Shown: positions 1,443 through 62,532 of the stretch, piece after piece
Layout of the letters: each line of letters starts with the position of its first letter
Position numbering within the stretch: the stretch's first letter is position 1
Assembly: GCA_018824305.1 (NCBI GenBank)
Contig: JAHJGM010000059.1
Location: 51,127 to 115,126 of the forward strand
DNA length: 64,000 bases
Direction: 5' to 3'
Source: a bacterium
GTDB lineage: Bacteria; Campylobacterota; Campylobacteria; Campylobacterales; Sulfurimonadaceae
Notes under the pieces: model-generated
The model's database searches: none
Seen by the model: the letters and a program-made list of their open reading frames with translations, nothing else
What the model was told of the DNA's origin: nothing
Translations under genes and position numbers: made by a program

Positions 1443-1982
1443 ATGAAAACTATAGCTCTTTTTGGCGGTTCTTTCGACCCACCCCATCTTGGTCATATCG
1501 GTGTTGTTAATGCAGCGTTATCAAGTTTAGATATAGACAAAGTTATAGTCATGCCGACCTATCTAAACCCTTTTAAAGCAAAAGTCTGTGCACCGCCGGA
1601 ACTGCGTTTAAAATGGCTTAGACAGATATTTTCCGCAAATACAAAAGTGGAAGTGGATGATTTTGAACTTACATGTAAGCGTAAAGTCCCTAGTCTGGAA
1701 ACCGTGCAGCACCTAAAAAAGAGATATGAAAACATCTATCTCATCATTGGTGCGGACAACCTTGCAAGCCTAGAGAAATGGTATGCCTACGAAGAACTCT
1801 GTAAGCTTGTGACTTTTGTCATAGCTTCAAGAGACAAGATAGAGATACCGAGTGAGTATATTCACTTACATGTGGATGAACCCATAAGTTCAACTGATTT
1901 AAGAGAAAATATTAAAAAAGAGTTTTTACCTGCTGAAATAGCCGATGAAATAGAAAAATTTTACAAGGAATACAATGGATAA
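1443..1982 (+). CDS. nadD: Nicotinate-nucleotide adenylyltransferase
   Basis: 179 aa. GGSFDPPHLGH nucleotidyltransferase (H/T)xGH motif and ISSTDLR near the C-terminus. 8-nt overlap with rsfS, the usual nadD-rsfS pairing. Confidence 0.9.
   Translation: MKTIALFGGSFDPPHLGHIGVVNAALSSLDIDKVIVMPTYLNPFKAKVCAPPELRLKWLRQIFSANTKVEVDDFELTCKRKVPSLETVQHLKKRYENIYLIIGADNLASLEKWYAYEELCKLVTFVIASRDKIEIPSEYIHLHVDEPISSTDLRENIKKEFLPAEIADEIEKFYKEYNG
1669..1678. repeat. TTACATGTAA iterated palindrome, perfect copy 1 of 13
   Basis: Context aaCTTACATGTAAGcg. Inside nadD, read as L-T-C-K. Confidence 0.9.
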
Positions 1983-2295
1983 AAGAGTAGAAAAAATATC
2001 TAATATTTTAGATGCGAACAAAGCTGAGGCTATAGAGGTTTTTGATCTTAGAAATAAAGATTATTTTGTTAATTATGTCGTTATCGCTTCATCTTTAGGT
2101 CAACGCCATACGGAAGCTTTACTTGACCATCTGAAAAAAGGGCTCAAACCTGAAGAAGAGTTCTTGTACATTGATGAAAGCAGCGATTGGATAGTTGCTG
2201 ATCTTGGAGATATCCTGATCCATATCATGACTCCTGAATTTAGAGTCAAATATGATATGGAAAGTTTTTTGACCGGACTCGGAAAAGCGCAGTAA
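1975..2295 (+). CDS. rsfS: Ribosome silencing factor RsfS (iojap-like)
   Basis: 106 aa, typical RsfS length. DWIVADLGDILIHIM matches the family core (W...D.GD..vH.f). Positioned after nadD. Confidence 0.85.
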   Translation: MDKRVEKISNILDANKAEAIEVFDLRNKDYFVNYVVIASSLGQRHTEALLDHLKKGLKPEEEFLYIDESSDWIVADLGDILIHIMTPEFRVKYDMESFLTGLGKAQ

Positions 2296-2302
2296 TCAAG
2301 AA

Positions 2303-2467
2303 CTATTCTTGAGAACTGTTGCCATCTGAGCTGTCTGAATGATCTACAGAGTTCTCAAAAACTCTACTAATATCTTCTCCCCATCCATTAACGGTTGCTT
2401 TCATCTCTTTTGCAGAGCAACCTGTCAATAATACAAGTGCCGCCAAACTCATCAATATATATCTCAT
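2303..2467 (-). CDS. Small predicted lipoprotein (54 aa), unknown function
   Basis: Below the ORF-track cutoff. Reverse translation: MRYILMSLAALVLLTGCSAKEMKATVNGWGEDISRVFENSVDHSDSSDGNSSQE*. It has a signal peptide plus an LLTGC lipobox. Its ATG overlaps the TGA of the upstream gene (ATGA at 2464-2467). Confidence 0.5.
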   Translation of the reverse strand: MRYILMSLAALVLLTGCSAKEMKATVNGWGEDISRVFENSVDHSDSSDGNSSQE

Positions 2468-3273
2468 TTTTCGATCCATCCTTTTGTTATTATCTTGTTA
2501 TCATCGTCAAATATCTTAATTTTAAAAGTCTCTTCACACTTTCCGGATTTTATATCGTATACTACCATCTGCAAGATTTTTTTACAAGATTTCGGAATCT
2601 CAAAATGTCCTTTTATTCCCGTAAAAAAAGTATCTAAAGGAACTTTTTTATCCATTCCTATGACATTATCCCGACATCCAGTAAGACCGATATCGCTCAA
2701 ATAAGCAGTACCCTTTGATATCTGCAGATCATCACTGCTTACATGTGTATGAGTTCCGCAGATGGCACTTACACGTCCTTCTAACAACATCATCATAGCA
2801 CGTTTTTCACTTGTTGCTTCTGCATGAACATCTACAAATATATTTGTCACGCCATCTGTATGTAAAGCATTGACGGCATCATCGGCACATCGAAAAGCAT
2901 TATCGACATAGGGCATCCCGTAATGCCCCATAACATTTAAGACTGCCAGTTTCTCACCCTTGACTTCATAGATCTTTAGTCCTGTTCCTGCAACACCGCT
3001 TGGATAATTATGCGGGCGCAAAATCTCATATTTGTCAAAAAGATCGAATATCTCTCTTTTGTCAAAAGTGTGATTCCCGCCTGTCATCACATCCACACCC
3101 GATTTAAAAAGCTCTTCGGCATTTTTTTTCGTAAGTCCGAATCCATGTGAAGCATTTTCATAATTTGCTATCACAAAGTCGATACCATGCTCCGTACAGA
3201 GTTTTTTAAGATGTTGTTGAATCATCACTCGTCCCGGACGACCTACGATATCTCCTATAAACGCTATTTTCAC
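2464..3273 (-). CDS. YmdB-like metallophosphoesterase (TIGR00282 family, 2',3'-cyclic-nucleotide phosphodiesterase-like)
   Basis: 269 aa. The MKIAFIGDIVGRPGR N-terminus, GNH and GTHTHV metal-binding motifs are typical of YmdB-family calcineurin-like phosphoesterases. Confidence 0.85.
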   Translation of the reverse strand: MKIAFIGDIVGRPGRVMIQQHLKKLCTEHGIDFVIANYENASHGFGLTKKNAEELFKSGVDVMTGGNHTFDKREIFDLFDKYEILRPHNYPSGVAGTGLKIYEVKGEKLAVLNVMGHYGMPYVDNAFRCADDAVNALHTDGVTNIFVDVHAEATSEKRAMMMLLEGRVSAICGTHTHVSSDDLQISKGTAYLSDIGLTGCRDNVIGMDKKVPLDTFFTGIKGHFEIPKSCKKILQMVVYDIKSGKCEETFKIKIFDDDNKIITKGWIEK

Positions 3274-6263
3274 AATAAGACCTTTGACTTGGTATTTCTT
3301 AGATACTCCAATGTTGCTTTGATGATATCGTCATCATCTTTACTCTTTGCAGTTATACTCTCTTTCGTGTCGTCCTGATAGATAAACGTGATGTTTTGAG
3401 CATAAGATGTCACTGTTTTGATCTTTTTATCCAGACTTAAAAGTTTGATGACCATCAGTTCAAAGAACTGTTTTGTCACATCATCGAGTGAACCGAATCT
3501 ATCGACACTCTCCTCTTCTATCTCATATATTTCAGTTACCTCTTCTGCCTGTGAAAGACGGCGATACAGATCAAGTCTGAGCCTGTCTTCACTCACGACT
3601 GCATCGGAGATATAAGCACTGATTGCAAGTTTGATATCTACTTTTGCTTTTTTCTCCTCAACATTATTGCTGAGTTCTTTTATGGCGTCCTCAAGCATTC
3701 TGAGATAAAGCGAATAACCGATGTTTTTGATATGTCCGCTTTGTGCATCGCCCACAAGATTTCCGCCGCCTCTTATCTCTAAATCATGATACGCAAGAAC
3801 TGAACCGCTTCCTAAAAACGAGTTTGACTCTAGAGCAATCAGACGTTTTTTTGCTTCATCCGTGATATTCTCTTTGTCTTCGACGATGAAATAGGCGAAC
3901 CCCTCTACATTAGAGCGTCCTACACGTCCGCGAAGCTGATGCAGGTCTGCGATACCAAAACGGTCTGCACCGTCTATGATCATCGTATTGACCGAGGGCA
4001 TGTGGATACCTGATTCTATGATGGATGTCGCTATCATGAGGTCATATTCACGGTTTTCAAACTTCAATAGCTCTCGTTCAGTATCTGCAGATGAGACTTG
4101 CGAATGAAGCATCACCATACGAAGTTCCGGAAGCAGTGCTTTTAGCTCGCCATATTTTATAGGCATATGGTCGATCGAATTATGTACGTAAAAGACCTGC
4201 CCGCCGCGGCGGAGTTCACGAAGGATTACCTCTTTGACCAGCTTTTCGTCATAGCTTTTGACAAACGTCCTCACACCCTGACGTTCGATTGGAGGAGTCT
4301 GCAACGTACTCATAGTCTTGATGGAACTCAGCGCCTGATTGAGTGACCTAGGGATCGGTGTCGCACTCATTGAAAGCATATGGATATTGTTATAAAGTTC
4401 TTTGATCTTCTCTTTTTGTTTTACTCCGAACTTGTGTTCCTCATCTACGATTACAAGCCCGAGATTTTTAAATGTAACGCTAAAAATAGCATGAGTGCCT
4501 ACGACTACATCTATTATTCCCTCTTTTAAGGCAATCAAGATATTTTTTTTCTCTTTATCTGAAATAAATCGGTCAAGTTTTGCGACCCTGATTCCAAGTT
4601 CATCGAATCTTCTATCCAACGATTTATAATGCTGTGAACTTAAAAGTGTAGTAGGAACGATAAGAGCACTTTGATAACCAGCTTTACATGTAGCATAAAT
4701 AGCATTCATCGCGACCTCTGTTTTACCAAAGCCCACATCGCCGCTAAGAAGCCTATCCATAATATGACCGCTTGATATTTCGGTAAGGATCTCATCTATC
4801 GACTGTTTTTGATCATCCGTATAATCAAATCCGGCAGATGACTGAAAATCTCTTATCGCACTTTTTGAAAACTCTATCTTCGGAGCCTTTATCAGTGCGC
4901 GTGCCGCTGCCGTATTTACAATTGATGAAGCTATCTCGAAAAGTTTTGTTCTTACACTCTCTTTGAGCTTTGCGAAACTTCCCTTGCCGAGCCTGTCCAA
5001 AACAGGAACGGAACCGCCGCCTGCGATATATCTGTCGATATAGTCAAGATTTTCAACGGGAAGCAGGACTTTATCATCGCCGATATAGCGGATGACGATA
5101 AAATCTTTTACCCCGCCGAGTATCTCCATCTGATCGATCTTTTCAAAGATACCCACACCGTAATCTTCATGTACCACATAATCGCCCGGTTTTAGATCGT
5201 CAAGAAGAATAGATGTTTTTCTGCGACGGCGTTTTTTCTCAGGCTTGTTCAGCGATATTACAAGTTCATTATCACCGATCACATTTAAAATAATAGGACT
5301 GTAAAGAACATCGATACCTTTTAGATCAAATATGCCCGATTGCTTTATCTGAGATTCATTGGAAGCGATCAGCTTTATTTTTTTGTTTTTATGCACATTG
5401 AGTATCGTTTTTACATCTGTCACTATAACAGGATGGTATGCATCCTCCTCGGGAATGATCTCGACATTGAACATCTCTCTTGGTATCTGCGGATCGTTAA
5501 GTCCGTATGCCTCGTCTAAAACAGCATCTAGCTTATGGATGAGTTTTGATTTTTTGCCCTCTAAGAAGTTTTCTGCCAATTCTTCAAGATGCCAAAAACC
5601 AAGTGAAGCCAAATCTTTTACAAAACTGTCACTGTCGCTTTGCAGGATTTTCTCTTTTAAAGAGTTAAACTGATCTTCATCAAGAGAATAGAAGGCAGAG
5701 GTTATTTCAAAACTCTCCAGCTCTTCGCCGATAGTTCTTTGTGTTTCAAGTTCAAACTCTTTTATCTGCTCGATCTCATTGTCAAATAAAGAGATCCTGA
5801 TAGGGTTTTGAGCAGAGGGAGAATAGATATCTATAATATCACCGCGAAATGAGATCTCTCCTTCCATCTGAACGATATCTACAAACTCGTATCCCCAAAA
5901 GAACATCTGTTCTTTGAACTCTTTAAGATCGATGGTCGAACCAAATTCAAGTGTAGTCGATTGCAATAATTCCTGTTTAGGAAATGGGAACAGCAGGGTT
6001 TTAAGAGGAGAGATGACAAGCGGTTTTTTTTCGCTTTTATAATATGTTCTGAGTGCTAAAAAAAGTTCGAAAAGTTCCTCTTTGAAAGGACGAAGATCAT
6101 CTTTGAACCTTGCTCTAAAATCCGGAAAGACAATGTGATCTAATTTGAAGTATTTTGCCACATCGGCCAGTAGGGATGCCTCTTTGGAATCTTGACATAT
6201 CAAGAGATCCAAAGATGGCTTTTTTTCAGTTTTTAAGTACTCAAATAAACGTGTTTGCGGCAA
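3270..6263 (-). CDS. mfd: Transcription-repair coupling factor
   Basis: 997 aa. CarD/TRCF RNAP-interaction region (DYVVHEDYGVG), superfamily-2 helicase motifs (GDVGFGKTEVA, DEEHKFG, SATPIPR) and a TRG-like region. Confidence 0.95.
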   Translation of the reverse strand: MPQTRLFEYLKTEKKPSLDLLICQDSKEASLLADVAKYFKLDHIVFPDFRARFKDDLRPFKEELFELFLALRTYYKSEKKPLVISPLKTLLFPFPKQELLQSTTLEFGSTIDLKEFKEQMFFWGYEFVDIVQMEGEISFRGDIIDIYSPSAQNPIRISLFDNEIEQIKEFELETQRTIGEELESFEITSAFYSLDEDQFNSLKEKILQSDSDSFVKDLASLGFWHLEELAENFLEGKKSKLIHKLDAVLDEAYGLNDPQIPREMFNVEIIPEEDAYHPVIVTDVKTILNVHKNKKIKLIASNESQIKQSGIFDLKGIDVLYSPIILNVIGDNELVISLNKPEKKRRRRKTSILLDDLKPGDYVVHEDYGVGIFEKIDQMEILGGVKDFIVIRYIGDDKVLLPVENLDYIDRYIAGGGSVPVLDRLGKGSFAKLKESVRTKLFEIASSIVNTAAARALIKAPKIEFSKSAIRDFQSSAGFDYTDDQKQSIDEILTEISSGHIMDRLLSGDVGFGKTEVAMNAIYATCKAGYQSALIVPTTLLSSQHYKSLDRRFDELGIRVAKLDRFISDKEKKNILIALKEGIIDVVVGTHAIFSVTFKNLGLVIVDEEHKFGVKQKEKIKELYNNIHMLSMSATPIPRSLNQALSSIKTMSTLQTPPIERQGVRTFVKSYDEKLVKEVILRELRRGGQVFYVHNSIDHMPIKYGELKALLPELRMVMLHSQVSSADTERELLKFENREYDLMIATSIIESGIHMPSVNTMIIDGADRFGIADLHQLRGRVGRSNVEGFAYFIVEDKENITDEAKKRLIALESNSFLGSGSVLAYHDLEIRGGGNLVGDAQSGHIKNIGYSLYLRMLEDAIKELSNNVEEKKAKVDIKLAISAYISDAVVSEDRLRLDLYRRLSQAEEVTEIYEIEEESVDRFGSLDDVTKQFFELMVIKLLSLDKKIKTVTSYAQNITFIYQDDTKESITAKSKDDDDIIKATLEYLRNTKSKVLL

Positions 6264-6300
6264 ATCTTATCCTATAAAAAATTGCCGTATTTTAACATAT

Positions 6301-16524: not shown

Positions 16525-17754
16525 ATGAAAAACCATATTGATAGTATTAATCCATACTTTAAAGATATTTTCTTAGCATTATTCACCGCATCGATGTTCA
16601 GTGCTTTTATCTATTTAGAACATTTTTCTCTTACATGTAAGCTTTGTAACTCTCTCTTTGCCCTTATCGCTATCGCATCGCTTCTCTACAGCTCAAAAAG
16701 AGTCATACTTCTTAGCGGCTTTTTTATAGGATTGTTTTGGTTTTACTGGATCGGTTTTAGTTTTAAATATTACGGATTGCCGACTTGGTTCGAGCCGCTC
16801 GTAGCATTTGGTTTTGGCATCATCTATATGCTTTTTTTCGGAACGCTCGCCCTTACTAAGAGGGTCTGCATCAGAGCTATTATCTTTTTCGGACTGAGTT
16901 TCATCGAGCCTTTTGGCTTTAACTGGATGAAGATCGAGCTGCTTTTTGTCAACAGCTATTTTGGGATATCCAAACTTGATCTGGCACTTATTTTAACTGC
17001 TTTGACACTGCCGATTTTTTTCAAAGGCAGAGTCAAATATCTTCCTCTTTTGCTTTTAGTTGCTGCCCTCTCGTTTTCACATCAAAAGCTCAAACTTCCC
17101 TCTTTAAAAATAGACCTTGTCGCTACAAATCTTAATCAAGATGAAAAGTGGGACGAAAGAAATCTTCAAAATATCATCAATATGAATCTTTCGTACATAG
17201 ACGATGCGATTGACCAAAAATATGATGTCGTTGTTTTACCTGAATCCGCTTTTCCGCTATATCTTAACCATGCTAGCAAGTTGCTATCCTATCTCAGTGA
17301 AAAATCAAAAGAGATCTCTATCATCACCGGTGCGGTGATCTCGGAGAAGGGCAAACATTTCAATGTGACCTATCATTTTGAGGACGGAAACTACACTATT
17401 GCAAAAAAGATGGTCTTGGTCCCTTTTGGCGAATATGTCCCTCTTCCGAAATTTGCACAGAAATGGGTAAGCGATACTTTTTTTGGCGGTGCTTCAGATT
17501 TCTCAGTCGCTTCAGAACCGACAGATTTTGAGATAAAAGGGATGAAATTCAGAAATGCCATATGCTACGAAGCTACTAAGGATGAACTGTATTTCAGCAA
17601 TCCTAAGTATATAATAGCCATTAGTAATAACGCATGGTTTTTGCCTTCGATCGAGCCTACATTGCAAAAATTACTGTTAAAATACTACTCAAAAAAATAT
17701 GGTACCATTATATTTCATGCGGCCAACCGTGCCGGAACTAATATAATTAGATAA
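16525..17754 (+). CDS. lnt: Apolipoprotein N-acyltransferase
   Basis: Multi-TM N-terminal half plus a C-terminal nitrilase/CN-hydrolase domain (VVLPESAF, ICYE catalytic Cys). The track ORF starts at TTG 16477, only 21 nt from divergent yajC. The ATG at 16525 leaves room for two promoters, so I prefer it. The start remains uncertain. Confidence 0.8.
   Translation: MKNHIDSINPYFKDIFLALFTASMFSAFIYLEHFSLTCKLCNSLFALIAIASLLYSSKRVILLSGFFIGLFWFYWIGFSFKYYGLPTWFEPLVAFGFGIIYMLFFGTLALTKRVCIRAIIFFGLSFIEPFGFNWMKIELLFVNSYFGISKLDLALILTALTLPIFFKGRVKYLPLLLLVAALSFSHQKLKLPSLKIDLVATNLNQDEKWDERNLQNIINMNLSYIDDAIDQKYDVVVLPESAFPLYLNHASKLLSYLSEKSKEISIITGAVISEKGKHFNVTYHFEDGNYTIAKKMVLVPFGEYVPLPKFAQKWVSDTFFGGASDFSVASEPTDFEIKGMKFRNAICYEATKDELYFSNPKYIIAISNNAWFLPSIEPTLQKLLLKYYSKKYGTIIFHAANRAGTNIIR
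16631..16640. repeat. TTACATGTAA iterated palindrome, perfect copy 2
   Basis: Context tCTTACATGTAAGc. Inside lnt, read as L-T-C-K. Confidence 0.9.
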
Positions 17755-17757: not shown

Positions 17758-17767
17758 TTACATGTAA
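17758..17767. repeat. TTACATGTAA iterated palindrome, perfect copy 3 (the only intergenic copy)
   Basis: Context taTTACATGTAAGGAttattATG. The 3' end of the motif runs into the cysK SD (AAGGA). Confidence 0.9.
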
Positions 17768-18699: not shown

Positions 18700-19270
18700 A
18701 AATCTGCTTGAGACCATCAAGATCATAGATGGAGAGATACAAAACCTTTCATATCATCAAGCACGATATGAGACTTCTCTGAGATCACTTAATCTGCCTG
18801 CAAAATATGATCTAAAAGAGTTTATAACTCCGCCGGATAAAGGTATTTACAGATGCAGAGTCATCTATAATGAAAATGATGTACGAGTCGAATATTTTTC
18901 TTATGAATACGCCCCTATAGATTCTCTTAAACTCGTTACAGCAAATACGATCGAATACTCTTTAAAATATGAAGACAGAGATGAACTCAATACTCTTTTT
19001 GATATGAGAGAGAGTTGTGATGATATCCTGATAGTGAAAAACTCTCTTTTGACAGACACATCAAAAGCAAATATCGCTCTTTTTGATGGATCTACATGGT
19101 ACACTCCCTCACAACCTCTTTTATACGGGACAACAAGAGCGAGATATCTCGATGCGGGCAAGATCATTGCAAAGCCTTTACATGTAAATGAAATCGCAAA
19201 CTTTAGCCAAGTCGCCGTGCTCAATGCCATGGTTGATTTTTGTATTGTTAAAAATGGTATAATTTCATAA
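18692..19270 (+). CDS. Aminotransferase class IV family protein (aminodeoxychorismate lyase-like)
   Basis: About 192 aa from ATG 18692 (8-nt overlap with cysK). The pattern ETI...G....L..H..R...S and the C-terminal LLxGxTR block resemble PabC / branched-chain class IV fold enzymes. The family call is by eye. Confidence 0.55.
   Translation: MSKNLLETIKIIDGEIQNLSYHQARYETSLRSLNLPAKYDLKEFITPPDKGIYRCRVIYNENDVRVEYFSYEYAPIDSLKLVTANTIEYSLKYEDRDELNTLFDMRESCDDILIVKNSLLTDTSKANIALFDGSTWYTPSQPLLYGTTRARYLDAGKIIAKPLHVNEIANFSQVAVLNAMVDFCIVKNGIIS
19178..19187. repeat. TTACATGTAA iterated palindrome, perfect copy 4
   Basis: Inside the class IV aminotransferase-like gene, read as P-L-H-V-N. Confidence 0.9.
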
Positions 19271-25534: not shown

Positions 25535-25974
25535 TCATTATCCTCTTTATACTGTTTTGCAAAACTCTCTAACAAATCGTCGATGTTTTCGTTCATATCT
25601 TCATCAATATTAAATACTTCAAATATCTTTTCAGCAGAATATGTCACGGCAAATACCTCTTCACCGTCATCGATCCTTTTAACCTCTTCGCCCACAAGCA
25701 GCTTTACATGTACGGCAGGTTCTTCGCCGATAGGGACTCCCGTGATCAAAAATGCAATAGAGCGCTGTGGATAGTCTTTCATGCTGATCCCGAGTGTCGT
25801 CATCTTGGCTTTAAGTTTTTGCAATATGATCTCTTTAAACTTTTGCGGCACATAATCGTTATGGATCTCCACAACAGGATATGCCCTTTTTAAACCCGTT
25901 AACATAAACGGTGTGTTTGCAAAAGAGTTTACATGTAATAGTACCGCTATGAGCAGTATTTTAAAAATATTCAT
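25531..25974 (-). CDS. Secreted/periplasmic hypothetical protein
   Basis: 147 aa. N-terminal signal peptide (MNIFKILLIAVLLHVNSFA), acidic C-terminus, and SD AAGGA 8 nt upstream. I recognise no family. Confidence 0.45.
   Translation of the reverse strand: MNIFKILLIAVLLHVNSFANTPFMLTGLKRAYPVVEIHNDYVPQKFKEIILQKLKAKMTTLGISMKDYPQRSIAFLITGVPIGEEPAVHVKLLVGEEVKRIDDGEEVFAVTYSAEKIFEVFNIDEDMNENIDDLLESFAKQYKEDNE
25929..25938. repeat. TTACATGTAA iterated palindrome, perfect copy 5
   Basis: Inside the signal peptide of the 147-aa secreted protein (minus strand), read as L-L-H-V-N. Confidence 0.9.
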
Positions 25975-29116: not shown

Positions 29117-30166
29117 CTATTCCTTCACTTTTAAGGCATAACCGCTGACAAGTCTAAGAAGGATATCAGGCTTAGCTACTACGATATCTTTGCCCTCTAG
29201 TGACTCTTTGATAACGACACCCTGCTGTGCACTCTGCAAGATATGAACTTCCTGTGCATCAGCTTGACTACCCTTGATGATCAGTACATAGCTTTTGCCA
29301 TCTCTGTTTAGCAGTGCATCAAAGGGAAGAAGTGTCCCTTTGTCATCAAACACAACCACATCGACCTCTATCCTGTCTCCGCTTGTCAAGTTATCTGCAC
29401 CGACATAGACCTTATACTCAGCAAGACCAGCGGATGTGCTTCCAAGAGGCAGCGTCTCATAGGTCTTAGAGTTGAACACGACACCTTTTATTTTAAGATC
29501 GCTTGGGACTCTTACCATAAGATAGAAGCCGTTTTTCGCACTTATGTTGATAAGCGCTTTTCCCGGCATACTCACAGCACCCTCGTTATCAAACGTCTTT
29601 GTTATAACACCATCGACCGGTGACGTGATAGTCGCATAAGAGAGGCTGTTATTCAACTCTATCGCTTTTTGTTTGAGTGATGCTATCTGAGCTTCTATAT
29701 TGGCTATTGAACTCAACTCTTTTTGCGACTCCTCGATCGAAGCGCCCTGCATTTTTAAAAGATCACTCGTTCTTTGATGCGTCGCCTGCAGATTTTCAAG
29801 AGAGACATTAGCCGCTTTTAACTGCTCATTTACACTCGCAAGATTACTTCCTATCTCTGTCGTATCCAGTCGAGCGATGATATCGCCTTTGCTTACATGT
29901 AAGCCGCTTGATTTGATGCTTATTATCCTAGCGGCGATACGTGAAGAGAGTTTTACGTCTTTATCGTTACTCACCTCTGCAAGATAAGGCAGAGTCAACT
30001 TTGCATCAACCATCTTCGGACTCATCTTGCTGACAACAATTGGATATATCACTGCCTGTGGAGAAGCAGCATCTTTTTGTTTTGCATTTTTGATCGTCTT
30101 TACACCTGCGACTATGATCGCGACTGCGGCTGCTACACCGATCGCTATTTTTACTGCTTTATTCAT
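29117..30166 (-). CDS. Efflux RND periplasmic adaptor subunit (membrane fusion protein)
   Basis: 349 aa. N-terminal anchor, alpha-helical hairpin region, and lipoyl/beta-barrel motifs (ITSPVDGVI). Located between the TolC-like and RND genes. Confidence 0.85.
   Translation of the reverse strand: MNKAVKIAIGVAAAVAIIVAGVKTIKNAKQKDAASPQAVIYPIVVSKMSPKMVDAKLTLPYLAEVSNDKDVKLSSRIAARIISIKSSGLHVSKGDIIARLDTTEIGSNLASVNEQLKAANVSLENLQATHQRTSDLLKMQGASIEESQKELSSIANIEAQIASLKQKAIELNNSLSYATITSPVDGVITKTFDNEGAVSMPGKALINISAKNGFYLMVRVPSDLKIKGVVFNSKTYETLPLGSTSAGLAEYKVYVGADNLTSGDRIEVDVVVFDDKGTLLPFDALLNRDGKSYVLIIKGSQADAQEVHILQSAQQGVVIKESLEGKDIVVAKPDILLRLVSGYALKVKE
29891..29904. repeat. TTACATGTAA iterated palindrome, perfect copy 6, extended to the 14-nt palindrome GCTTACATGTAAGC
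   Basis: Inside the efflux adaptor gene (minus strand), read as G-L-H-V-S. Confidence 0.9.
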
Positions 30167-36603: not shown

Positions 36604-37767
36604 TTAACTCTCTATATATTTTATCACTCTATCTAAATCTATCTTCTCATCTACTGATGAAGGGGGAAGATCATCCGCCTCTTGTAAAGCTGTAAAAAGC
36701 TCATCATCTTCGATATACTGTACATGATGAACATACTTAAACAACTCTCTTTGATCATAAAAATGCTTTCCGGTTATGATCTTGCATCCAAAGTGAGCCG
36801 GTTCAAGCGGATTGTGACCGCCAACATCGGCTTTAAACGCTCCGCCTAAGACGGCAATATCACTTATCCTATAGATGTTGTTCAGCTCACCCATCATGTC
36901 TACTAAAACCACATCCGTAGATAAACTTTTGTCTTCACTAAAACGGCTTACATGTAAAGCATTTTCATTACAAAAATTAAGAAGCAGTCTATAGACCTCT
37001 TCAAACCTTTCGGGATGACGCGGAACGACTATGAGTTTAGCTTTATTCTCTTGCAGATATTTTTTATATCCCGCAAGTATTATTTTTTCTTCACCATCAT
37101 GCGTACTTGCTGCTACTATTGTTTTAGTTGATGGTTTTTCATACTCTTTACTCTCTTTTATCACTTGTGCCAGCTTTATGTTTCCGACAACTTCGACATT
37201 TTTTGCACCGAGTGTAGCAAATCTAAGAGCATCTATCTCGCTTTGACAAAATATGATATTTACATGTGATAAAAGACGTTTATAAAACCATCCCATCTTC
37301 ATATATTTTTTCACACTTTTGTCCGATATACGAGCATTTAAAAGTACGACTTTGCCTCCGCGTGCAGAGACTACGGCAAAAAGCATATACCAAAATTCCG
37401 CTTCTAAAACTACGAGTATTTTTTGCGGTTTTATCCAAAGGGGCAAAAACATCTCGTATGGAAGATATCTCAGATCCACTCCATATTTTTTTGCTTCATT
37501 TTGCCCGGTATGGGTTATGGTGGTTATCTTCACATTCTCTTTATCGATTTTATCCAAAATCGGTTTTAATGCCCTGCTCTCACCGAGTGAGCAAACATGA
37601 AACCAGATACCGTTACTATTTTTAAATCCTGGATTATTAAAAAGAAAAAAGCGGGACGGAACAGATTCTTTGTATTTTTTCTTAAAAGACAAAGATATCA
37701 AAAGCGGCAGTGCTAAAATATACAGCACTACGCTTAAGAGATAATAGATGAAGGAAAATGGCTTCAA
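36604..37767 (-). CDS. waaA: 3-deoxy-D-manno-octulosonic acid (Kdo) transferase
   Basis: 387 aa. N-terminal anchor, WFHVCSLGE motif, and a C-terminal glycosyltransferase region (GGHNPLEPA). Adjacent to an HP0958-like gene, as in H. pylori. Confidence 0.85.
   Translation of the reverse strand: MKPFSFIYYLLSVVLYILALPLLISLSFKKKYKESVPSRFFLFNNPGFKNSNGIWFHVCSLGESRALKPILDKIDKENVKITTITHTGQNEAKKYGVDLRYLPYEMFLPLWIKPQKILVVLEAEFWYMLFAVVSARGGKVVLLNARISDKSVKKYMKMGWFYKRLLSHVNIIFCQSEIDALRFATLGAKNVEVVGNIKLAQVIKESKEYEKPSTKTIVAASTHDGEEKIILAGYKKYLQENKAKLIVVPRHPERFEEVYRLLLNFCNENALHVSRFSEDKSLSTDVVLVDMMGELNNIYRISDIAVLGGAFKADVGGHNPLEPAHFGCKIITGKHFYDQRELFKYVHHVQYIEDDELFTALQEADDLPPSSVDEKIDLDRVIKYIES
36948..36957. repeat. 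TTACATGTAA iterated palindrome, perfect copy 7
   Basis: Inside waaA (minus strand), read as A-L-H-V-S. Confidence 0.9.
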
Positions 37768-37770: not shown

Positions 37771-38487
37771 TTACGCTTCTTCGCCCTCGGCGATATATAA
37801 TATACGGCCACAATGTGGACATGTAGTGATCTCTTCACCTTTGATGACATCTGCATAAACTTTATCGTTTACATGCATGTAACATCCCATACAAGCTTGT
37901 TCTTTAACTTCGACAGCCGTAGTGTTTTTAGCCCAACGACGAATCTTTTGATAAAAAGCCAAACCTTTTTGGTTCATTCCGCCGACTAATTTCTCTTTTC
38001 TTGCAAACACTTCATGACGCGCTTTTTCAATACCTGCTATTTTTTCATCGACATCAGCTTTGATCCCAACAAGGTTTGTATCTAGTTCATCTCTTTTTTG
38101 AGTCAATTCTTCATGTTTAGCTTTTTTTGCCGTGATCAGTTTGTCTAAACGTACGATCTCTTCATTTGCAAAAGTTACTTGCTCTTTAGCTATCTCTTCT
38201 TCAAGTTGTAAAGATTTCATTTCACGTTCAGTTTTTATTTCTGAAGCTTTTTTCTTGTTGTCTTCTAGCTTTGCAGAAAGTTCTGCTAAATGAAGCTCAT
38301 TTTTATGTTTTTTTAACTCTTCATTTTTCATCTCATCTTCTAGAGAAGAGATTTCGCTGTCTAAACTGCCTTTTGTTGCAAGAGTTGCTTCATACTTATA
38401 GTTTACCTCATCTATCTGAGGTTCAAAAGCATCTATTTCTTTATCGACTGCTGAGAGGTCTATTAGTTGTTTTAAGTGTTTGTTCAT
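37771..38487 (-). CDS. Coiled-coil C4 zinc-ribbon protein (DUF164 family, HP0958-like)
   Basis: 238 aa. A long heptad-rich coiled coil followed by CMGC...CPHCGRIL (a four-Cys zinc ribbon). The waaA / this gene / Nif3 order is the same as H. pylori HP0957-HP0959 (from memory). Confidence 0.7.
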   Translation of the reverse strand: MNKHLKQLIDLSAVDKEIDAFEPQIDEVNYKYEATLATKGSLDSEISSLEDEMKNEELKKHKNELHLAELSAKLEDNKKKASEIKTEREMKSLQLEEEIAKEQVTFANEEIVRLDKLITAKKAKHEELTQKRDELDTNLVGIKADVDEKIAGIEKARHEVFARKEKLVGGMNQKGLAFYQKIRRWAKNTTAVEVKEQACMGCYMHVNDKVYADVIKGEEITTCPHCGRILYIAEGEEA

Positions 38488-42771: not shown

Positions 42772-43298
42772 TGGTTCATAACTTTAAAGATATAACACCG
42801 GCTGTCGGTGAGAAAAGCTGGATAGCACCCTCAGCCGATGTCATCGGTGATGTAACCATAGGCGAAGATTGTTCTATCTGGTTTGGGTGTGTCGTTCGCG
42901 GCGATGTCCATTACATCACCATAGGTGACAGGACAAATATCCAAGACCTCAGCATGTTACATGTAACGCATTACAAGAAAGCCGATAAAAGCGACGGGAA
43001 CCCGACTATCATCGGTAACGATGTGACTGTCGGTCACCGTGTCATGCTTCACGGCTGTACCATAGAAGACGCGTGTCTTATCGGGATGAGCGCGACCATA
43101 CTTGACGGTGCGGTTATAGGAAAAGAATCCATAGTCGGTGCGGGAGCGCTTGTCACAAAGAACAAAGTATTTCCTCCCCGCTCACTTATCATGGGAAGTC
43201 CTGCAAAACTCGTAAAAGAACTGAGTGATGAAGAGGTCAAAGAGCTTTATGCATCAGCTTCAAGATATGTGAAGTTCAAAGAGGACTATCGTAGCTAA
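42771..43298 (+). CDS. Gamma carbonic anhydrase family / hexapeptide-repeat protein (YrdA/PaaY-like)
   Basis: 175 aa. Left-handed beta-helix hexapeptide repeats with the conserved GDV..I.IG..TNIQD and H..H His ligands. Confidence 0.8.
   Translation: MVHNFKDITPAVGEKSWIAPSADVIGDVTIGEDCSIWFGCVVRGDVHYITIGDRTNIQDLSMLHVTHYKKADKSDGNPTIIGNDVTVGHRVMLHGCTIEDACLIGMSATILDGAVIGKESIVGAGALVTKNKVFPPRSLIMGSPAKLVKELSDEEVKELYASASRYVKFKEDYRS
42957..42966. repeat. TTACATGTAA iterated palindrome, perfect copy 8 (12-nt palindrome GTTACATGTAAC)
   Basis: Inside the gamma-CA-like gene, read as M-L-H-V-T. Confidence 0.9.
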
Positions 43299-43916
43299 AT
43301 GCCGCACCTTGATCCGCTTATCTTAGTAGACATCTTAGGGATTATCGCTTTTACGATAAGCGGTTTTTTAGTCGGAGCCAGAAATAATCTGGACATACTC
43401 GGACTCGTCATCGCAGCCTCACTTACCGCTCTTGGCGGTGGAATCGTGCGAGACACCATCCTCAGCGTCACACCATTTGCTTTTAAAACACTCTACCCTG
43501 CAACTGCACTTTTTGTAGTCATATTTCTGGCATTTCTCATCAAGATACATAGATTCGGAAGTATCGAGAAAAAATGGCTTTTTGTCATTAGCGATACCAT
43601 CGGACTCGTTGCTTTTAGTATCACGGGAGCACTGCTGGCTCTACATGCAGGATATAATTTTTTCGGAGTCATCATCCTCAGTTTCATCACGGCGATGGGC
43701 GGAGGAGTCATAAGAGATATCCTCATAAACCAAGTCCCGGCGGTACTTATCAGCGACTTCTACGGCTCTGTCTCGGTCATAGTCTCCATACTTCTGCTGC
43801 TCTTACATGTAAGTGATCTTTTAAACCAAACGACCATACTTTTGGTGGCAATGTTCTCTATCGCGCTTAGACTTGTGGCTTATAAATATAAATGGCAGTT
43901 GCCGACTATAACATAA
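43299..43916 (+). CDS. Trimeric intracellular cation channel (TRIC) family / UPF0126 membrane protein
   Basis: 205 aa. Internal duplication of a three-TM unit, each ending in the glycine motif GGG(I/V)(V/I)RD (GGGIVRDTIL and GGGVIRDILI). Confidence 0.75.
   Translation: MPHLDPLILVDILGIIAFTISGFLVGARNNLDILGLVIAASLTALGGGIVRDTILSVTPFAFKTLYPATALFVVIFLAFLIKIHRFGSIEKKWLFVISDTIGLVAFSITGALLALHAGYNFFGVIILSFITAMGGGVIRDILINQVPAVLISDFYGSVSVIVSILLLLLHVSDLLNQTTILLVAMFSIALRLVAYKYKWQLPTIT
43803..43812. repeat. TTACATGTAA iterated palindrome, perfect copy 9
   Basis: Context tCTTACATGTAAGt. Inside the TRIC-family gene, read as L-L-H-V-S. Confidence 0.9.
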
Positions 43917-47811: not shown

Positions 47812-48072
47812 TTAGTTGATTCTGACGGATCTTACATGTAAGCGATCTTTTAAAATCAGGCTGGTATAGATATGACCGACTTTATACTTGTATCTCATCA
47901 TTTCAGGAGCTATCAGTTGTGAACGAAATTGATTTGTTTTTATATTTCTGAAGATTGCTTTGTAGTAGTTTGGATGCTCTTTGATATTTATGTCAGTGAC
48001 TATGACAAATTCAAAAGGTTGGTTAGGGAATTTTGAGAAAAACTCGAGGATTGTTGAGTTGTTTTGCGCCAA
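47812..48072 (-). CDS. Hypothetical 86-aa protein, no recognised family
   Basis: TTG start preceded by a strong SD (GGAGGA, 7 nt spacer). Basic and aromatic-rich, with no signal peptide. It lies between argJ and the TonB-receptor operon. Confidence 0.4.
   Translation of the reverse strand: MAQNNSTILEFFSKFPNQPFEFVIVTDINIKEHPNYYKAIFRNIKTNQFRSQLIAPEMMRYKYKVGHIYTSLILKDRLHVRSVRIN
47832..47841. repeat. TTACATGTAA iterated palindrome, perfect copy 10
   Basis: Context tCTTACATGTAAGc. Inside the 86-aa ORF (minus strand), read as R-L-H-V-R. Confidence 0.9.
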
Positions 48073-48132: not shown

Positions 48133-49314
48133 TTACGTCCTATAATCCGCATTGATCTTGACATACTCATATCCGAGATCACATCCGTATGCAGTGAAAC
48201 ACCCTTTGCCAACACCTAAGTCACAACTAATTGTGAACGCAGGCAGTTTCATGATCGCTGCTGCTTCTACTTCCATCTCTTTGTTAAAAAAGATCTCGCC
48301 TTTGTCATAAACACAAAGATCGTTGAAAGAGACTTTTAGAGTTTCTTCTTTACATGTAACACCGCTTGCTCCGACAGTAGAGGCGATACGTCCCCAGTTT
48401 GGATCTTCTCCGTAAAGTGCAGTCTTGACCAAAAGCGAATCACTGAGCGCTTTTGCTACTTTTTCAGCTTCTTTATCATTTTTTGCGCCTGTTACGTTAT
48501 ATGTCACAAGTTTAGTAGCACCCTCGCCGTCTCTTACCATCTCTTTTGCCAAGAACAGCATGATCTCGTGAAGTGCTTCTTTGAATGCTTCTTTGTTGTA
48601 AACACCGCTTTTTTTGTTTGCAAAAAGCATCACGGTGTCGTTGGTCGAAGTATCTCCATCCACACTTGCCGCATTAAAAGTCGTTTTTACTGTTTTATCG
48701 AGTATCTTCTGCATCTTTTTTTTGCTTACATCAGCATCTGTCGTGATGAAACAAAGCATCGTCGCCATCGCAGGATTTATCATCCCAGCACCCTTTGCCA
48801 TCGCACCGATATGAAACTTGCTTCCATCTTCCAAAACTACTTCAAATGCGATAGTCTTAGAAAAACTGTCCGTCGTCATGATCGCTTTGCTTGCGTTTAC
48901 GGGTTCTCTTTTTGTGATGTCAAACTTTGTCGTACCTGCGATGATCTTCTCTTTTGGTATTCTCACGCCAATAACGCCAGTTGAGCTCATCACCGGGTTT
49001 ACAAGCCCCTCGATCTCTATGGAAGAAAGTATCTCATCTATGTCAGAGACTCCTTTGCTTCCCGTCATCGCGTTTGCATTTCTAGAGTTGATGACCAAAA
49101 AATTCGTTTTAAAATCACCCTTCTTTTTAAAGTGTTTTATAGGCGCTGCCGCCATTTTGTTCGTTGTAAATGTAGACGCGATCTCACACAATGTGTCACT
49201 ATAAATAAAAGCCATATCCAAAGCATCGTTTGCTTTTAGACCAGCATGGATTCCATCGGCATAAAAGCCATCAGCTGCACAAACACCACTATCAATTCTA
49301 TTTAATTTATACAT
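48133..49314 (-). CDS. argJ: Bifunctional ornithine acetyltransferase / N-acetylglutamate synthase
   Basis: 393 aa. Autoproteolytic site context (PAMATMLCFITTDA) and the conserved GEDPNWGRI block. Confidence 0.93.
   Translation of the reverse strand: MYKLNRIDSGVCAADGFYADGIHAGLKANDALDMAFIYSDTLCEIASTFTTNKMAAAPIKHFKKKGDFKTNFLVINSRNANAMTGSKGVSDIDEILSSIEIEGLVNPVMSSTGVIGVRIPKEKIIAGTTKFDITKREPVNASKAIMTTDSFSKTIAFEVVLEDGSKFHIGAMAKGAGMINPAMATMLCFITTDADVSKKKMQKILDKTVKTTFNAASVDGDTSTNDTVMLFANKKSGVYNKEAFKEALHEIMLFLAKEMVRDGEGATKLVTYNVTGAKNDKEAEKVAKALSDSLLVKTALYGEDPNWGRIASTVGASGVTCKEETLKVSFNDLCVYDKGEIFFNKEMEVEAAAIMKLPAFTISCDLGVGKGCFTAYGCDLGYEYVKINADYRT
48350..48359. repeat. TTACATGTAA iterated palindrome, perfect copy 11
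   Basis: Inside argJ (minus strand), read as V-T-C-K. Confidence 0.9.
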
Positions 49315-60149: not shown

Positions 60150-60243
60150 TTGGTTTCCTTTGTATATGTTTGAAAATTTTCATTTTTAAACAAAAGATTA
60201 GTGCGATTATACTATAATCTCCATTTTAAATTGATTTAGGACA

Positions 60244-61311
60244 TTGCTTTTGCTCTATTGGCTTCACCTATACTTTGATATAAACATTCTCAACTACATA
60301 ACTATACGCGCTGGTATTGCATTTTTTTTAGGTCTGATTTTTACTCTTTTTTTAATGCCGAAATTCATTAAATGGGCTAAAAAAAGTTCAAGTGTACAAC
60401 CCATAAACAACTGGGTTCCGGAAGCTCATCAACTAAAATCAAAGACTCCTACAATGGGCGGGATAGTTTTCATCATATCGACACTTCTTGCATCAGTCCT
60501 TACCGTCAAACTGACAAATATCTATGTCATAGGCGCTCTTGCGACGATCATGACTTTTGCACTTATCGGTTTTCAAGATGACATGGCAAAGATAAAAAAT
60601 AAACTCAACACAGCAGGACTTTCCGCCAAAGCAAAACTTTTTGCTCAGGTTTTAAGTGCAGGAGGCGTAGCAGTATTTTTGTATATCTTTGCGGATTTCG
60701 ACACAGAACTCTATATCCCGTTCATTAAAAATCCTCTTATAGATATGGGCATGTTTTCTATCTTTTTTTGGGCGATCGTCATGGTCTCTGCATCAAATGC
60801 CGTCAATCTTACGGACGGGCTTGACGGACTGGCGACAGTTCCCTCCATCGCTGCTCTTTCATCCCTGAGTCTTATCGTCTATGCAACCGGAAACAGCGTC
60901 TTTAGCGACTACCTTTTAATCCCTCACTACAATGTCGGCGAAGTGGTTATCATCGCTGCGGCGCTCATCGGTTCACTGGCAGGATTCTTATGGTTTAACT
61001 GTCATCCTGCGGAAGTATTTATGGGAGACAGCGGTTCGCTTACGCTTGGAGCATTTATTGCCTACATGGCTATAATCAGCAAGGTCGAGATACTGCTTGT
61101 GCTGATCGGTCTTATCTTCGTCATCGAGACGCTTTCCGTGATCCTTCAGGTGGGAAGTTTCAAACTGCGTAAAAAACGCATCTTTTTAATGGCCCCCATC
61201 CACCACCATTTCGAGATGAAAAACTGGTCGGAAAATAAGATCATCGTAAGGTTTTGGATCATTGCCATCATCTCTAACCTCATCGCGATCATCACTCTAA
61301 AGATACGTTAA
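60244..61311 (+). CDS. mraY: Phospho-N-acetylmuramoyl-pentapeptide transferase
   Basis: 355 aa. YITIRAG N-terminus, [19 protein letters not shown] and MGDSGSL motifs. The track start is TTG 60244. The in-frame TTG at 60250 has better spacing (8 nt) from AGGA at 60238-60241 and may be the true start. Confidence 0.93.
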
Positions 61312-62532
61312 ATGGGCACGGTATCTCTTTTTGGATATGGCGGCACGACAAAAGCACTTGCCAAGAACATAAAAAATGTCATTTTTTACGATGATAAAGT
61401 CACTAAGCCCTTTACCGACGAAAACGGTTTTAAAGTAAGACCCTCAAGCGACTTTGACCCGAAATATTCAGCTTTGGAGATAACGTCACCGGGTATACCG
61501 CCGCACAATCCTTTGATCCAAAAAGCACAAAATCTCATCAGCGAGTATGACTATTTAGCCGACGTGATGCCTTTTTCCATCTGGATAAGCGGTACAAACG
61601 GCAAGACTACGACAACACAGATGACGCAGTATCTTCTGCGCGAATATGGAAGTATCGAGGGTGGAAACATCGGTACGGCACTGGCAAAACTTGACACCGC
61701 TGCTTCTATGTGGGTGCTGGAAACAAGTAGTTTCACTCTTCACTATACCAATAAAGCAAGACCGAATATATATGTACTGCTTCCGCTCTCACCCGATCAT
61801 CTCTCTTGGCACGGTGATATGCAGGCATATACCCACGACAAGCTCAAACCTCTCAAGATGATGAAAGACGGAGAGATAGCCATAATCCCCAAAATCTACA
61901 AAGACTCTCTTATCTCAAAAGCAAATATTCTCTTTTATGAAGATGAGAACGAGCTGGCAAAGATATTTGGCATAGATATCCAAAAAATAAACTTCAAAGG
62001 TGTATTTTTACTTGACGCTCTTTTGGCACTTTGTATCAAAAAGATACTTTTTAACACTCTAGATTATGAGGGTATCAACTCCTTTGTGATCGATCCTCAT
62101 CGTCAAGAGGAGCTAAGAGACTCTTATGATAGACTTTGGGTCAATGATACCAAAGCGACAAATCTTGATGCGACGATCGGCGCACTTAAAAGATACAAGG
62201 AACACCATATCCATCTGATCCTTGGCGGAGATGACAAAGGTGTCGATCTGACACAGCTTTTTGAATTCCTCCAAGAGTTACATGTAAAGTACCCTGCGGG
62301 TGTAAGCATCTATGCGATAGGTTCAAATCAGGAAAAACTTCTTAAGCTATCCAATGATTTCGGTCTTACATGTAAGGGATGCGATATCTTGGCAAATGCC
62401 GTAGAAGAGATAGCAAAAGTTCTTAAAACAGGAGAGGTTGCACTGCTCTCTCCTGCAGCTGCAAGCCTAGATCAATTTACCTCTTATGCACAGCGTGGAG
62501 AGATGTTCAAAGAGTTTGTCAAAGCTCTTTGA
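61312..62532 (+). CDS. murD: UDP-N-acetylmuramoylalanine--D-glutamate ligase
   Basis: 406 aa. Mur ligase P-loop GTNGKTTT. The start abuts the mraY stop (mraY-murD order). Confidence 0.88.
   Translation: MGTVSLFGYGGTTKALAKNIKNVIFYDDKVTKPFTDENGFKVRPSSDFDPKYSALEITSPGIPPHNPLIQKAQNLISEYDYLADVMPFSIWISGTNGKTTTTQMTQYLLREYGSIEGGNIGTALAKLDTAASMWVLETSSFTLHYTNKARPNIYVLLPLSPDHLSWHGDMQAYTHDKLKPLKMMKDGEIAIIPKIYKDSLISKANILFYEDENELAKIFGIDIQKINFKGVFLLDALLALCIKKILFNTLDYEGINSFVIDPHRQEELRDSYDRLWVNDTKATNLDATIGALKRYKEHHIHLILGGDDKGVDLTQLFEFLQELHVKYPAGVSIYAIGSNQEKLLKLSNDFGLTCKGCDILANAVEEIAKVLKTGEVALLSPAAASLDQFTSYAQRGEMFKEFVKAL
62278..62287. repeat. TTACATGTAA iterated palindrome, perfect copy 12
   Basis: Inside murD, read as E-L-H-V-K. 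Confidence 0.9.
62366..62375. repeat. TTACATGTAA iterated palindrome, perfect copy 13
   Basis: Context tCTTACATGTAAGg. Inside murD, 88 nt after copy 12, read as L-T-C-K. Confidence 0.9.

Follow-up and report, generated by a model that had tools for sequence, protein, structure and literature searches.

What could place 13 exact copies of one 10-base palindrome in a single 64-kb stretch of bacterial DNA, most of them inside unrelated genes? The stretch (contig JAHJGM010000059.1, positions 51,127 to 115,126, from a member of the Sulfurimonadaceae) is called the window here and is meant at its full length. Its G+C content is 39.3%, and the open reading frames (ORFs) that it carries are unremarkable housekeeping genes: gapA, nadD, mfd, leuS, secDF, lnt, pcrA, an RND efflux operon, ffh, waaA, ppk, argJ, fabF, mraY, murD and others. 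We find that the palindrome, TTACATGTAA, is a hyper-abundant DNA word of the same kind as the DNA uptake sequence (DUS) of Neisseria, the uptake signal sequence (USS) of Pasteurellaceae and the highly iterated palindrome HIP1 of cyanobacteria, with TACATGTA as its core and ACATGT as its inner core. As to its function, we give a probability of about 45% to the proposal that this lineage-specific word serves as a self-DNA tag in natural transformation.

A preliminary description of the window, made by eye, had listed 13 exact copies, and a computational pattern search returned the same 13 at the same positions. Dinucleotide-preserving shuffles of the window contained 0.07 copies on average and never more than one; Markov models of orders 1-4 predicted 0.08-0.30 copies, and order-3 simulations (n = 100) gave 0.04. 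The ratio of observed to expected copies (O/E) exceeds 100, and among 10-mer palindromes in the window TTACATGTAA is the only one over-represented, the runner-up having three copies. The preference for the exact word is also sharp. One-mismatch variants are about 4-fold enriched (12 against 2.8 expected in the order-3 simulation), two-mismatch variants show no enrichment (38 against 40.6 expected), and the exact copies outnumber all 30 possible one-mismatch neighbours summed. Counts of the nested words in the window fall from 28 for ACATGT through 19 for TACATGTA and 13 for TTACATGTAA to six for CTTACATGTAAG, and TTACATGT occurs 20 times. The earlier figures of 28 ACATGT and 20 TTACATGT agree with this recount, as do the extensions noted for single copies (six to CTTACATGTAAG, one to GCTTACATGTAAGC at 29893 and one to GTTACATGTAAC at 42957). 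Sequence conservation around the copies stops beyond +/-2 nt. Their density is 0.2 per kb, or about one per 5 kb, and their spacing over the 64 kb looks random, as judged by eye. Contig JAHJAW010000005.1, from the metagenome-assembled genome (MAG) GCA_018813945.1, extends 9.6 kb beyond the window start and holds one more copy, whose position coincides with that of the triose-phosphate-isomerase gene annotated there; with this extension, 64-74 kb of the source genome is covered.

Is the word then imposed by the proteins that these genes encode? The exact copies are listed here, with the peptide that each encodes; L numbers denote loci of relatives.

1669..1678: in nadD (1443-1982, + strand), read cTT ACA TGT AAg, L-T-C-K.
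16631..16640: in lnt (16477-17754, + strand), L-T-C-K; exact in L195.
17758..17767: in the 21-nt spacer from lnt to a PALP/CysK-like gene (17776-18699); the sole clearly intergenic copy.
19178..19187: in an aminotransferase class IV-like gene (18653-19270, + strand), L-H-V-N; 9/10 in L195, ATACATGTAA in L194.
25929..25938: in a gene for a 147-aa hypothetical protein (25531-25974, - strand), L-H-V-N.
29893..29902: extended to GCTTACATGTAAGC, in an RND efflux adaptor gene (29117-30166, - strand), L-H-V-S.
36948..36957: in waaA/kdtA (36604-37767, - strand), L-H-V-S; exact in L190, 9/10 in L058, lost in L055 (LAVS) and in Sulfurimonas sp. HSL-1716.
42957..42966: as GTTACATGTAAC, in a gamma-carbonic-anhydrase-like (gamma-CA) gene (42771-43298, + strand), L-H-V-T.
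43803..43812: in a UPF0126/PF03458 membrane-protein gene (43299-43916, + strand), L-H-V-S; exact in L055 and L056.
47832..47841: in an unconserved 86-aa ORF (47812-48072, - strand) between argJ and a TonB-dependent receptor gene.
48350..48359: in argJ (48133-49314, - strand), read GTT ACA TGT AAA, V-T-C-K.
62278..62287: in murD (61312-62532, + strand), L-H-V-K; exact in L003, L004, L006 and L007, 9/10 in L001.
62366..62375: in murD, 88 nt from the previous copy, L-T-C-K; exact in L001, 9/10 in L003, 8/10 in L002 (L-P-C-K).

The copies occupy two reading frames, both gene strands and 10 well-supported, unrelated genes, with 11-12 of the 13 in ORFs. Only two frames are used. The remaining one has a TAA in it, on either strand, since the word is palindromic. 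The preliminary description had placed 12 of the 13 in coding sequences. Eleven do lie in well-supported ones; the twelfth, at 47832, sits in an ORF for which a tblastn comparison with the related loci gave no homologue (best E = 0.19, 23 aa), so that this copy may be non-coding or intergenic. The eight L-H-V and four x-T-C-K readings given there, and the spacing of the murD pair, are correct. When synonymous codons were shuffled within ORFs (1000 times), which preserves all proteins and the codon usage, the mean was 0.65 copies and the maximum 4, against 12 observed; the excess thus persists within the window under codon-aware as well as Markov null models. The tripeptide LHV occurs 12 times in the window's proteins against 2.5 expected, and TCK five times against 0.6. 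In 11 of the 12 LHV tripeptides the leucine codon is TTA (written TTA CAT GTx), though TTA makes up only 19% of leucine codons.

The word is also restricted to particular lineages. Between 5 and 22 kb was examined for each relative, with 2-4 kb at some loci, and whole-genome behaviour is extrapolated from these regions; clades are those of a single-gene neighbour-joining tree of Ppk. The window's best relatives are Sulfurimonadaceae and Campylobacterales MAGs, and the closest named organism, which is also the nearest relative in culture, is Sulfurimonas sp. HSL-1716, whose Ppk and PcrA are 94% identical. In the murD region TTACATGTAA is enriched in L001-L004, L006 and L007, was not found around murD in the Sulfurovum, Arcobacter and Helicobacter loci, and is found a single time in about 700 kb of murD-region loci from Clostridia and other distant groups. 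In the ppk region there are 16 copies in 80 metagenomic loci (1.08 Mb, Ppk 71-90% identical), and they fall mainly into two separate groups on the Ppk tree. Clade A consists of the window, L055, L056 and, more weakly, L058. Clade B (L077, L102, L085, L080 and L078) is nested within a large word-free radiation, and TTACATGTAA is absent from about 60 other Sulfurimonas-like loci. Relatives that resemble the window in composition and codon usage have zero copies. At both the murD- and the ppk-region loci, therefore, enrichment is lineage-specific, a question that the preliminary description had raised. The form of the word differs somewhat between the two groups: the clade A consensus is Y-T-TACATGTA-A-R, so that the word extends to YTTACATGTAAR, and the enriched unit of clade B is the shorter TACATGTA, with looser outer positions. 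A related version is found on a contig of GCA_028694595.1 (L194), whose PcrA is identical to that of Sulfurimonas denitrificans DSM 1251. ACATGTA reaches 17 copies there where 2 are expected, and ACATGT reaches 14 where 3-4 are; these shorter units, and TACATGTA with them, are enriched in L194/L198 (OW818672.1; for TACATGTA five against 0.3 expected). It is therefore probable that a looser form of the word is present in S. denitrificans or a very close relative, which would then serve as a tractable organism for tests.

Alignment of orthologues separates word-bearing from word-free proteins at the very residues that the word encodes. In argJ, more than 30 relatives have the ancestral-like GVE[A/C]xE, and GVTCKE is found only in the window, L055 and L056, with a 9/10 word in L058. 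At the murD position 62278, Sulfurovum, Arcobacter and Helicobacter read LNL, LSL, YDI or LNI, as against LHV in the word-bearers. The PF03458 protein reads LLHVS, in its full-word form, only in the window, L055 and L056, and distant relatives have LLELF, VLQYF and similar sequences. The His and Cys residues are thus specific to word-bearing lineages. Together with the codon shuffle, the LHV and TCK excess and the TTA bias, these alignments bear out the earlier proposal that the pressure is on the DNA word and not on the proteins. The gamma-CA gene adds a case in which the word has been built twice. M[IV]HVTH is conserved at this site in about 70 relatives' loci, and the I/V-to-L (TTA) change that completes TTACATGTAA occurs only in the window, L190 and the clade B members L085, L078 and L080. 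The word was thus created convergently in two clades, at a pre-existing near-match. Because the H-V-T-H peptide is itself conserved, this copy is partly protein-driven.

Copies are maintained above background where the word persists, and decay where it has been lost. Of 13 orthologous sites, 7 are exact in clade-A relatives, whereas about 12% of control 10-mers from these alignments are conserved (binomial p = 3e-4). The comparison is one at approximately 78-82% nucleotide identity, with a small sample and relatives that are not fully independent. HSL-1716 (regions L189 and L193, CP147918.1: 1893537-1934611) is by identity nested within the clade, being closer to the window than L055 or L190 is. 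It has one TTACATGTAA in 44 kb, located within an accessory AbiH gene, and of seven orthologous sites not one is intact (Fisher p = 0.044 vs other relatives). The lnt site at 16631 has eroded to TTACATGCAG, so that cTT ACA TGT AAg has become cTT ACA TGC AGa, which reads L-T-C-R and includes a synonymous TGT>TGC change. The argJ site at 48350 is GTG ACA TGC AAA, two synonymous breaks with VTCK kept, and the PF03458 site at 43803 is TTG CAT GTA A in both HSL-1716 and L190, a synonymous break with LHV kept. At these three HSL-1716 sites, then, synonymous substitutions are among the changes, with T-C or L-H-V retained; the RND adaptor site at 29893, which reads GCACATGCGA, likewise retains H-V. 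HSL-1716 has lost the word, and protein scars persist as the DNA word decays. Recently acquired DNA presents a parallel absence: in L190 the 13.4 kb of core sequence contains four copies, and the 8.7-kb Tn7-like island next to it has none. This island (L190:13430-22100), inserted after the PF03458 gene, carries genes for TnsA, a TnsB-like protein, TniB, TniQ and type I restriction-modification.

Do the word-free relatives lack such words altogether? All Campylobacterota loci of at least 10 kb were scanned for words against an order-3 Markov null with Bonferroni correction, and several sister lineages proved to have words of their own.

L099 (Ga0272440_1000556), 729-13291: (C)TTACGTAA(G), 8 copies in about 15.4 kb, usually as CTTACGTAAG.
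L106: AAACGCAG, asymmetric, 27 copies in 21.6 kb (16 on the + strand, 11 on the - strand) against about 1 expected, all in ORFs.
L101, L094, L104, L084, L111 and L062: AAACGCAG, enriched.
L119, L081 and L199 (a closed 2.43-Mb genome): TTCCACATGCC, 9-12 copies against 0.1-0.4 expected.
L131: CTCACGCA, 12 copies (6 on each strand).
L123 and L095: AGATTCTA, 16 copies (7 on the + strand, 9 on the - strand) and 10 copies.
L075: TAAACGCC, 8 copies.
L191, Sulfurimonas sp. CS5: CAGATGC, 17 copies against 2.6 expected.

Every sister word in this list except CAGATGC, and in addition CCACATGC and the TACATGTA of clade B, exceeds the synonymous-shuffle maximum; CAGATGC and ACATGTA were assessed by the Markov test only. 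Densities reach 0.5-1.25 per kb for some of the words. The asymmetric words occur sense and antisense and in several frames, without strand skew within single loci (16:11, 3:6, 6:6 and 7:9); TTCCACATGCC, CTCACGCA, AGATTCTA, TAAACGCC and CAGATGC are each present on both strands. The L099 word consists of the outer half-sites of TTACATGTAA minus the central AT; L099 is without TTACATGTAA and the window without TTACGTAA. In general the words track clades on the Ppk tree, yet TACATGTA, AAACGCAG and CCACATGC recur in separate clades, two in the case of AAACGCAG. Different words are found in contigs of one metagenome series and even of one sample id (for example Ga0256829 and Ga0256837). In all, at least eight unrelated words, palindromic and asymmetric side by side, exist among lineages whose housekeeping proteins are 72-95% identical, and TTACATGTAA is one dialect of a family-wide phenomenon resembling DUS, USS and HIP1.

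Other candidate words were set aside. AAGTACTT (7 copies in 21 kb of the Sulfurovaceae MAG L008) and TAGATCTA (L128) failed the Markov and Bonferroni test, as did AGTACT (9-11 copies in L111 and L112), although AAGTACTT and AGTACT are suggestive. CACCCTCA (L128) lies mostly in one antisense frame and may be peptide-driven, so it was not counted, and the 17 ACATGT copies in L061 have inconsistent flanks.

How do these observations compare with known systems? DUS and USS are 9-12 nt long, enriched about 100-fold or more, and found on both strands and in several frames, in poorly conserved protein segments where they force particular residues. They form dialects by lineage, are absent from recently acquired DNA and show an exact-match preference that fits drive. 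They are asymmetric, have a density of about one per kb and differ from genus to genus by 1-3 nt. TTACATGTAA is likewise short, enriched more than 100-fold, sharply defined, indifferent to frame and strand, peptide-distorting and divided into dialects in related lineages. It differs in being palindromic, in its density of 0.2 rather than about one per kb, and in having close-relative dialects that are unrelated in sequence; in this clade uptake specificity, a receptor (e.g. ComP) and competence itself are hypothetical.

HIP1 (GCGATCGC) is a second parallel. It too is a short, hyper-abundant, mostly intragenic palindrome whose orthologous sites are conserved above background; it has a nested core and outer bases, with deviants toward the outer bases, and some lineages are without the word or have another. 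HIP1 is over-represented 15- to 300-fold, and its function is debated, with methyltransferases, repair, the nucleoid and, most recently, transformation all under discussion. The abundance of such palindromes tracks cognate methyltransferases (PMC4390886), they co-evolve with genes of the DNA-uptake machinery (bioRxiv 10.64898/2026.06.24.733823), HIP1 sites are argued to be conserved by selection (PMC5861425), and methylated HIP1 is reported to raise natural transformation by up to more than 100-fold (bioRxiv 10.1101/2024.09.10.611283). The differences are that TTACATGTAA is AT-rich, 10-12 bp long and in Campylobacterota, whereas HIP1 is a GC-rich 8-mer of cyanobacteria; that TTACATGTAA occurs about once per 5 kb and HIP1 up to about once per gene; that cognate methyltransferases are tied to HIP1, while for TTACATGTAA one is only proposed; and that the sister lineages of TTACATGTAA carry asymmetric words, whereas the alternate HIPs are described as GC-rich palindromes. 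A third parallel comes from the same phylum: in Campylobacter jejuni, DNA enters the cell only if it is methylated at the palindrome RAATTY (PMC10046745). There, as proposed here, a palindrome is a self mark for uptake, and the C. jejuni specificity is set by a methyltransferase, CtsM; RAATTY is, however, a degenerate 6-mer, and methylation of TTACATGTAA itself is only hypothesised. RAATTY is already common in an AT-rich genome, and we know of no evidence that it is driven to excess. The kind of feature is thus a known one; new here are the AT-rich 10-12-bp form, the phylum and the unusual diversity of dialects.

The excess of the exact word, its indifference to frame and strand, its cost in amino acids, convergent gain, conservation, absence from new DNA, decay and dialects together form the pattern of DUS, USS and HIP1, rather than that of regulators, repeats or codon effects. 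It is from this pattern that we infer a role in transformation and a link to methylation. In the model that we favour, a sequence-specific process acting on DNA would create and maintain copies wherever a near-match exists, tolerating either permissible frame at the cost of changes to L-H-V or T-C-K. The word would be read during natural transformation, when DNA is bound and taken up or when it is recombined, and word-bearing fragments would be preferentially taken up or recombined. It would thereby spread through the core genome by molecular drive, and the same bias would retain it. The specificity factor would be accessory and exchangeable, the most plausible candidate being a DNA methyltransferase whose mark is read. 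An exchangeable factor of this type would explain why sister lineages have unrelated words, why both palindromic and asymmetric types exist and why the word decays after loss of the factor. The likeness to HIP1 and to uptake sequences that the preliminary description had suggested gains support from the enrichment and distribution tests, and the functional candidates that it named (an uptake signal, methylation-linked repair or a binding site) are all still in play.

Several points weigh against this interpretation. The density of about 0.2 per kb is five times below that of classical DUS and USS, which are not palindromes, and typical methyltransferase sites are shorter than the 8-12 specified bases of these words. 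The window holds housekeeping genes only, and no methyltransferase, restriction or competence gene was found in it, 74 kb of the genome being reachable; a regular-expression scan for methyltransferase motifs in all Campylobacterota loci returned only two ORFs, both in L116 and unrelated to any word. Literature searches gave no uptake sequence for Sulfurimonas or Campylobacterota. HSL-1716 is more GC-rich in the regions compared (0.42-0.43 vs 0.39 in the window), which could speed the decay of an AT-rich word. Finally, the view of the genome is limited to 64-74 kb, with 5-22 kb per relative, and is extrapolated from there.

A more far-reaching version of the self-DNA tag model, which we regard as possible but doubtful, is that these lineages have a fast-switching repertoire of 7-12-nt tags, palindromic and asymmetric, each set by a horizontally exchangeable factor (for instance a methyltransferase with a mark that the transformation machinery reads), gained convergently, kept by drive and decaying on factor loss, and that the tags isolate co-occurring vent and aquifer populations. 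If so, Campylobacterota would have their first uptake-signal-like system, and no known dialect system would be more diverse; and if the words gate gene flow, they would bear on how co-existing Sulfurimonas populations of vents and aquifers stay distinct. Hyper-abundant words are well documented in few groups (Neisseriaceae, Pasteurellaceae and cyanobacteria), and whether they originate by drive or by selection is still argued. The present case adds a phylum for which the literature searched describes no such word, together with at least eight unrelated words, a convergent gain in two clades and a natural loss experiment. Searches for TTACATGTAA, for AAACGCAG and for iterated palindromes or uptake sequences in Epsilonproteobacteria, Campylobacterota or Sulfurimonas yielded nothing relevant in that literature, and no sister word turned up in them. 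For Sulfurimonas methylomes it yielded only the 5-methylcytosine motifs of S. denitrificans (CGCG, CCNGG, GATC and CCGG), determined by a method that cannot assay ACATGT. Since cultured or closed genomes exist on both sides (S. denitrificans-like with ACATGTA, CS5 with CAGATGC, HSL-1716 with none), comparative genomics could find the responsible gene.

Which other explanations could account for the word? The one that survives best, though we think it unlikely, is a drive by methylation-linked short-patch repair without any role in uptake. A methyltransferase would mark ACATGT or CATG, a Vsr-like or methyl-directed activity would convert near-matches, and the word would be a by-product, as in Elhai's model for HIP1 (PMC4390886). 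The nesting of ACATGT within TACATGTA within TTACATGTAA resembles that of CGATCG in HIP1, and the looser outer positions of clade B fit as well. Deviants lean outward, 5 of the 12 one-mismatch copies differing at position 1 or 10 against 20% expected (binomial p ~0.07, a hand estimate), and Elhai reports the same for HIP1 (PMC4390886). The patchy distribution and the loss in HSL-1716 would suit an accessory gene, and the dialect TTACGTAA holds ACGT/TACGTA, another typical methyltransferase core. Against this, known drives of the very-short-patch type enrich contexts of 4-5 bp to a modest degree and do not raise a 10-mer more than 100-fold, and asymmetric 8-11-mers such as AAACGCAG and TTCCACATGCC, at up to 1.25 per kb, are not naturally explained. 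CATG as a whole is under-represented in the window, where no methyltransferase or Vsr gene was seen, and for HIP1 Xu et al. argue that site conservation favours selection over neutral repair (PMC5861425).

We consider it improbable that the word is bound by a dimeric protein of the nucleoid-associated or chromosome-organising type and kept for chromosome structure, in the manner of parS, Noc-binding sites or matS, or along the lines suggested for the periodicity of HIP1. A 10-bp palindrome would suit a dimeric DNA-binding protein, the conservation of orthologous sites above background would be expected, parS and Noc-binding sites are also intragenic, and a nucleoid role has been proposed for HIP1 by Xu et al. 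(PMC5861425). Sites selected for affinity usually tolerate degeneracy, however, whereas here the exact copies exceed all their one-mismatch neighbours, and the several hundred sites per genome that the window extrapolates to would require implausibly strong selection at each. Nor is a core chromosome function easily reconciled with sister lineages that use unrelated words, with the placement of asymmetric words on both strands, or with complete loss in a relative with 94% identical proteins.

Equally hard to credit is a Chi-like control of recombination or nucleases, in which the word would modulate processing of the AddAB/RecBCD type or protect self DNA from a nuclease, and would build up in the genome through better repair or survival of DNA ends. 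Chi sites, which are 5-8 nt long, differ between lineages and are unrelated from taxon to taxon; they are enriched in the core genome and missing from islands. For HIP1, a partly Chi-like role has been suggested by Kamoku and Nielsen (bioRxiv 10.1101/2024.09.10.611283). Like Chi and the FtsK orienting polar sequences (KOPS), the words described here are short, lineage-specific and core-enriched; Chi and KOPS are, however, oriented and strand-skewed (Chi toward the leading strand) and have much lower O/E, whereas a palindrome cannot be oriented and the asymmetric sister words are unskewed. Ratios for Chi usually lie well below the 25-fold to >100-fold found here.

An artefact of chance, codon usage, a recurrent peptide or a dispersed repeat, such as a miniature inverted-repeat transposable element (MITE) or a repetitive extragenic palindromic (REP) sequence, can be dismissed: it has in its favour the gamma-CA copy on its conserved H-V-T-H peptide, and it is refuted by null models that are all rejected by one to two orders of magnitude, by the use of two frames and both gene strands in unrelated proteins, by flanks without conservation beyond +/-2 nt and a mostly intragenic location, unlike REP, MITE or enterobacterial repetitive intergenic consensus (ERIC) elements, and by the zero count in relatives of similar composition and codon usage.

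An RNA hairpin was also set aside, a 10-bp palindrome being too short, in our judgement rather than by folding, to form a stable one. Phages were considered as well. Viral contigs were scanned for GCTTACATGTAAGC, and none of 51 loci had more than one copy of the 10-mer, which gives no evidence for word-rich phages. The 55-kb contig IMGVR_UViG_3300020042_006565 (about 59% G+C) has three GCTTACATGTAAGC sites with unrelated flanks (L142:10566, L173:3729 and L184:7139). These are probably operator-like and unrelated to the Sulfurimonas word.

The incomplete copies of the word in the window are the following.

621, 4468, 4684, 6962, 8154, 10711, 23563, 24185, 25704, 35910, 37260 and 57903: starts of the 12 one-mismatch copies.
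37869..37882: expanded palindrome TTACATGCATGTAA, in a zinc-ribbon protein gene (37771-38487, - strand), with the outer half-sites of TTACATGTAA around a 6-nt centre.

The preliminary description had named six 9/10 copies. Those at 4684 and 24185 were correctly placed, and the other four were off by 1 or 10 nt, their true starts being 10711, 23563, 25704 and 35910; the starts at 621, 4468, 6962, 8154, 37260 and 57903 are additional. The near-copy at 25704 (TTACATGTAC) is an exact TTACATGTAA in the relative L190. The expanded palindrome was found as first described. Its longer centre, and the centre of the L099 word, which is 2 nt shorter than that of TTACATGTAA, hint that the outer TTAC/GTAA arms matter.

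Some 4-bp palindromes are under-represented in the window under a maximal-order Markov model (O/E 0.29 for GGCC, 0.59 for CTAG, 0.60 for CCGG, 0.62 for GCGC and 0.64 for CATG), which suggests past restriction pressure. It is an oddity that CATG, the centre of the enriched TTACATGTAA, should be disfavoured by the window background.

Neither tRNAs nor Rfam families were found when the whole window was scanned for them. A segment of about 145 nt immediately downstream of argJ (47988-48132), likewise without tRNA or Rfam match, is 80% identical in nucleotides to L116 and, over 95 nt, 77% identical to L112. With L111, L099 and the opposite strand of L112 it shares only 25-26 nt (48107-48132), and so it may be an inverted-repeat element or a terminator.

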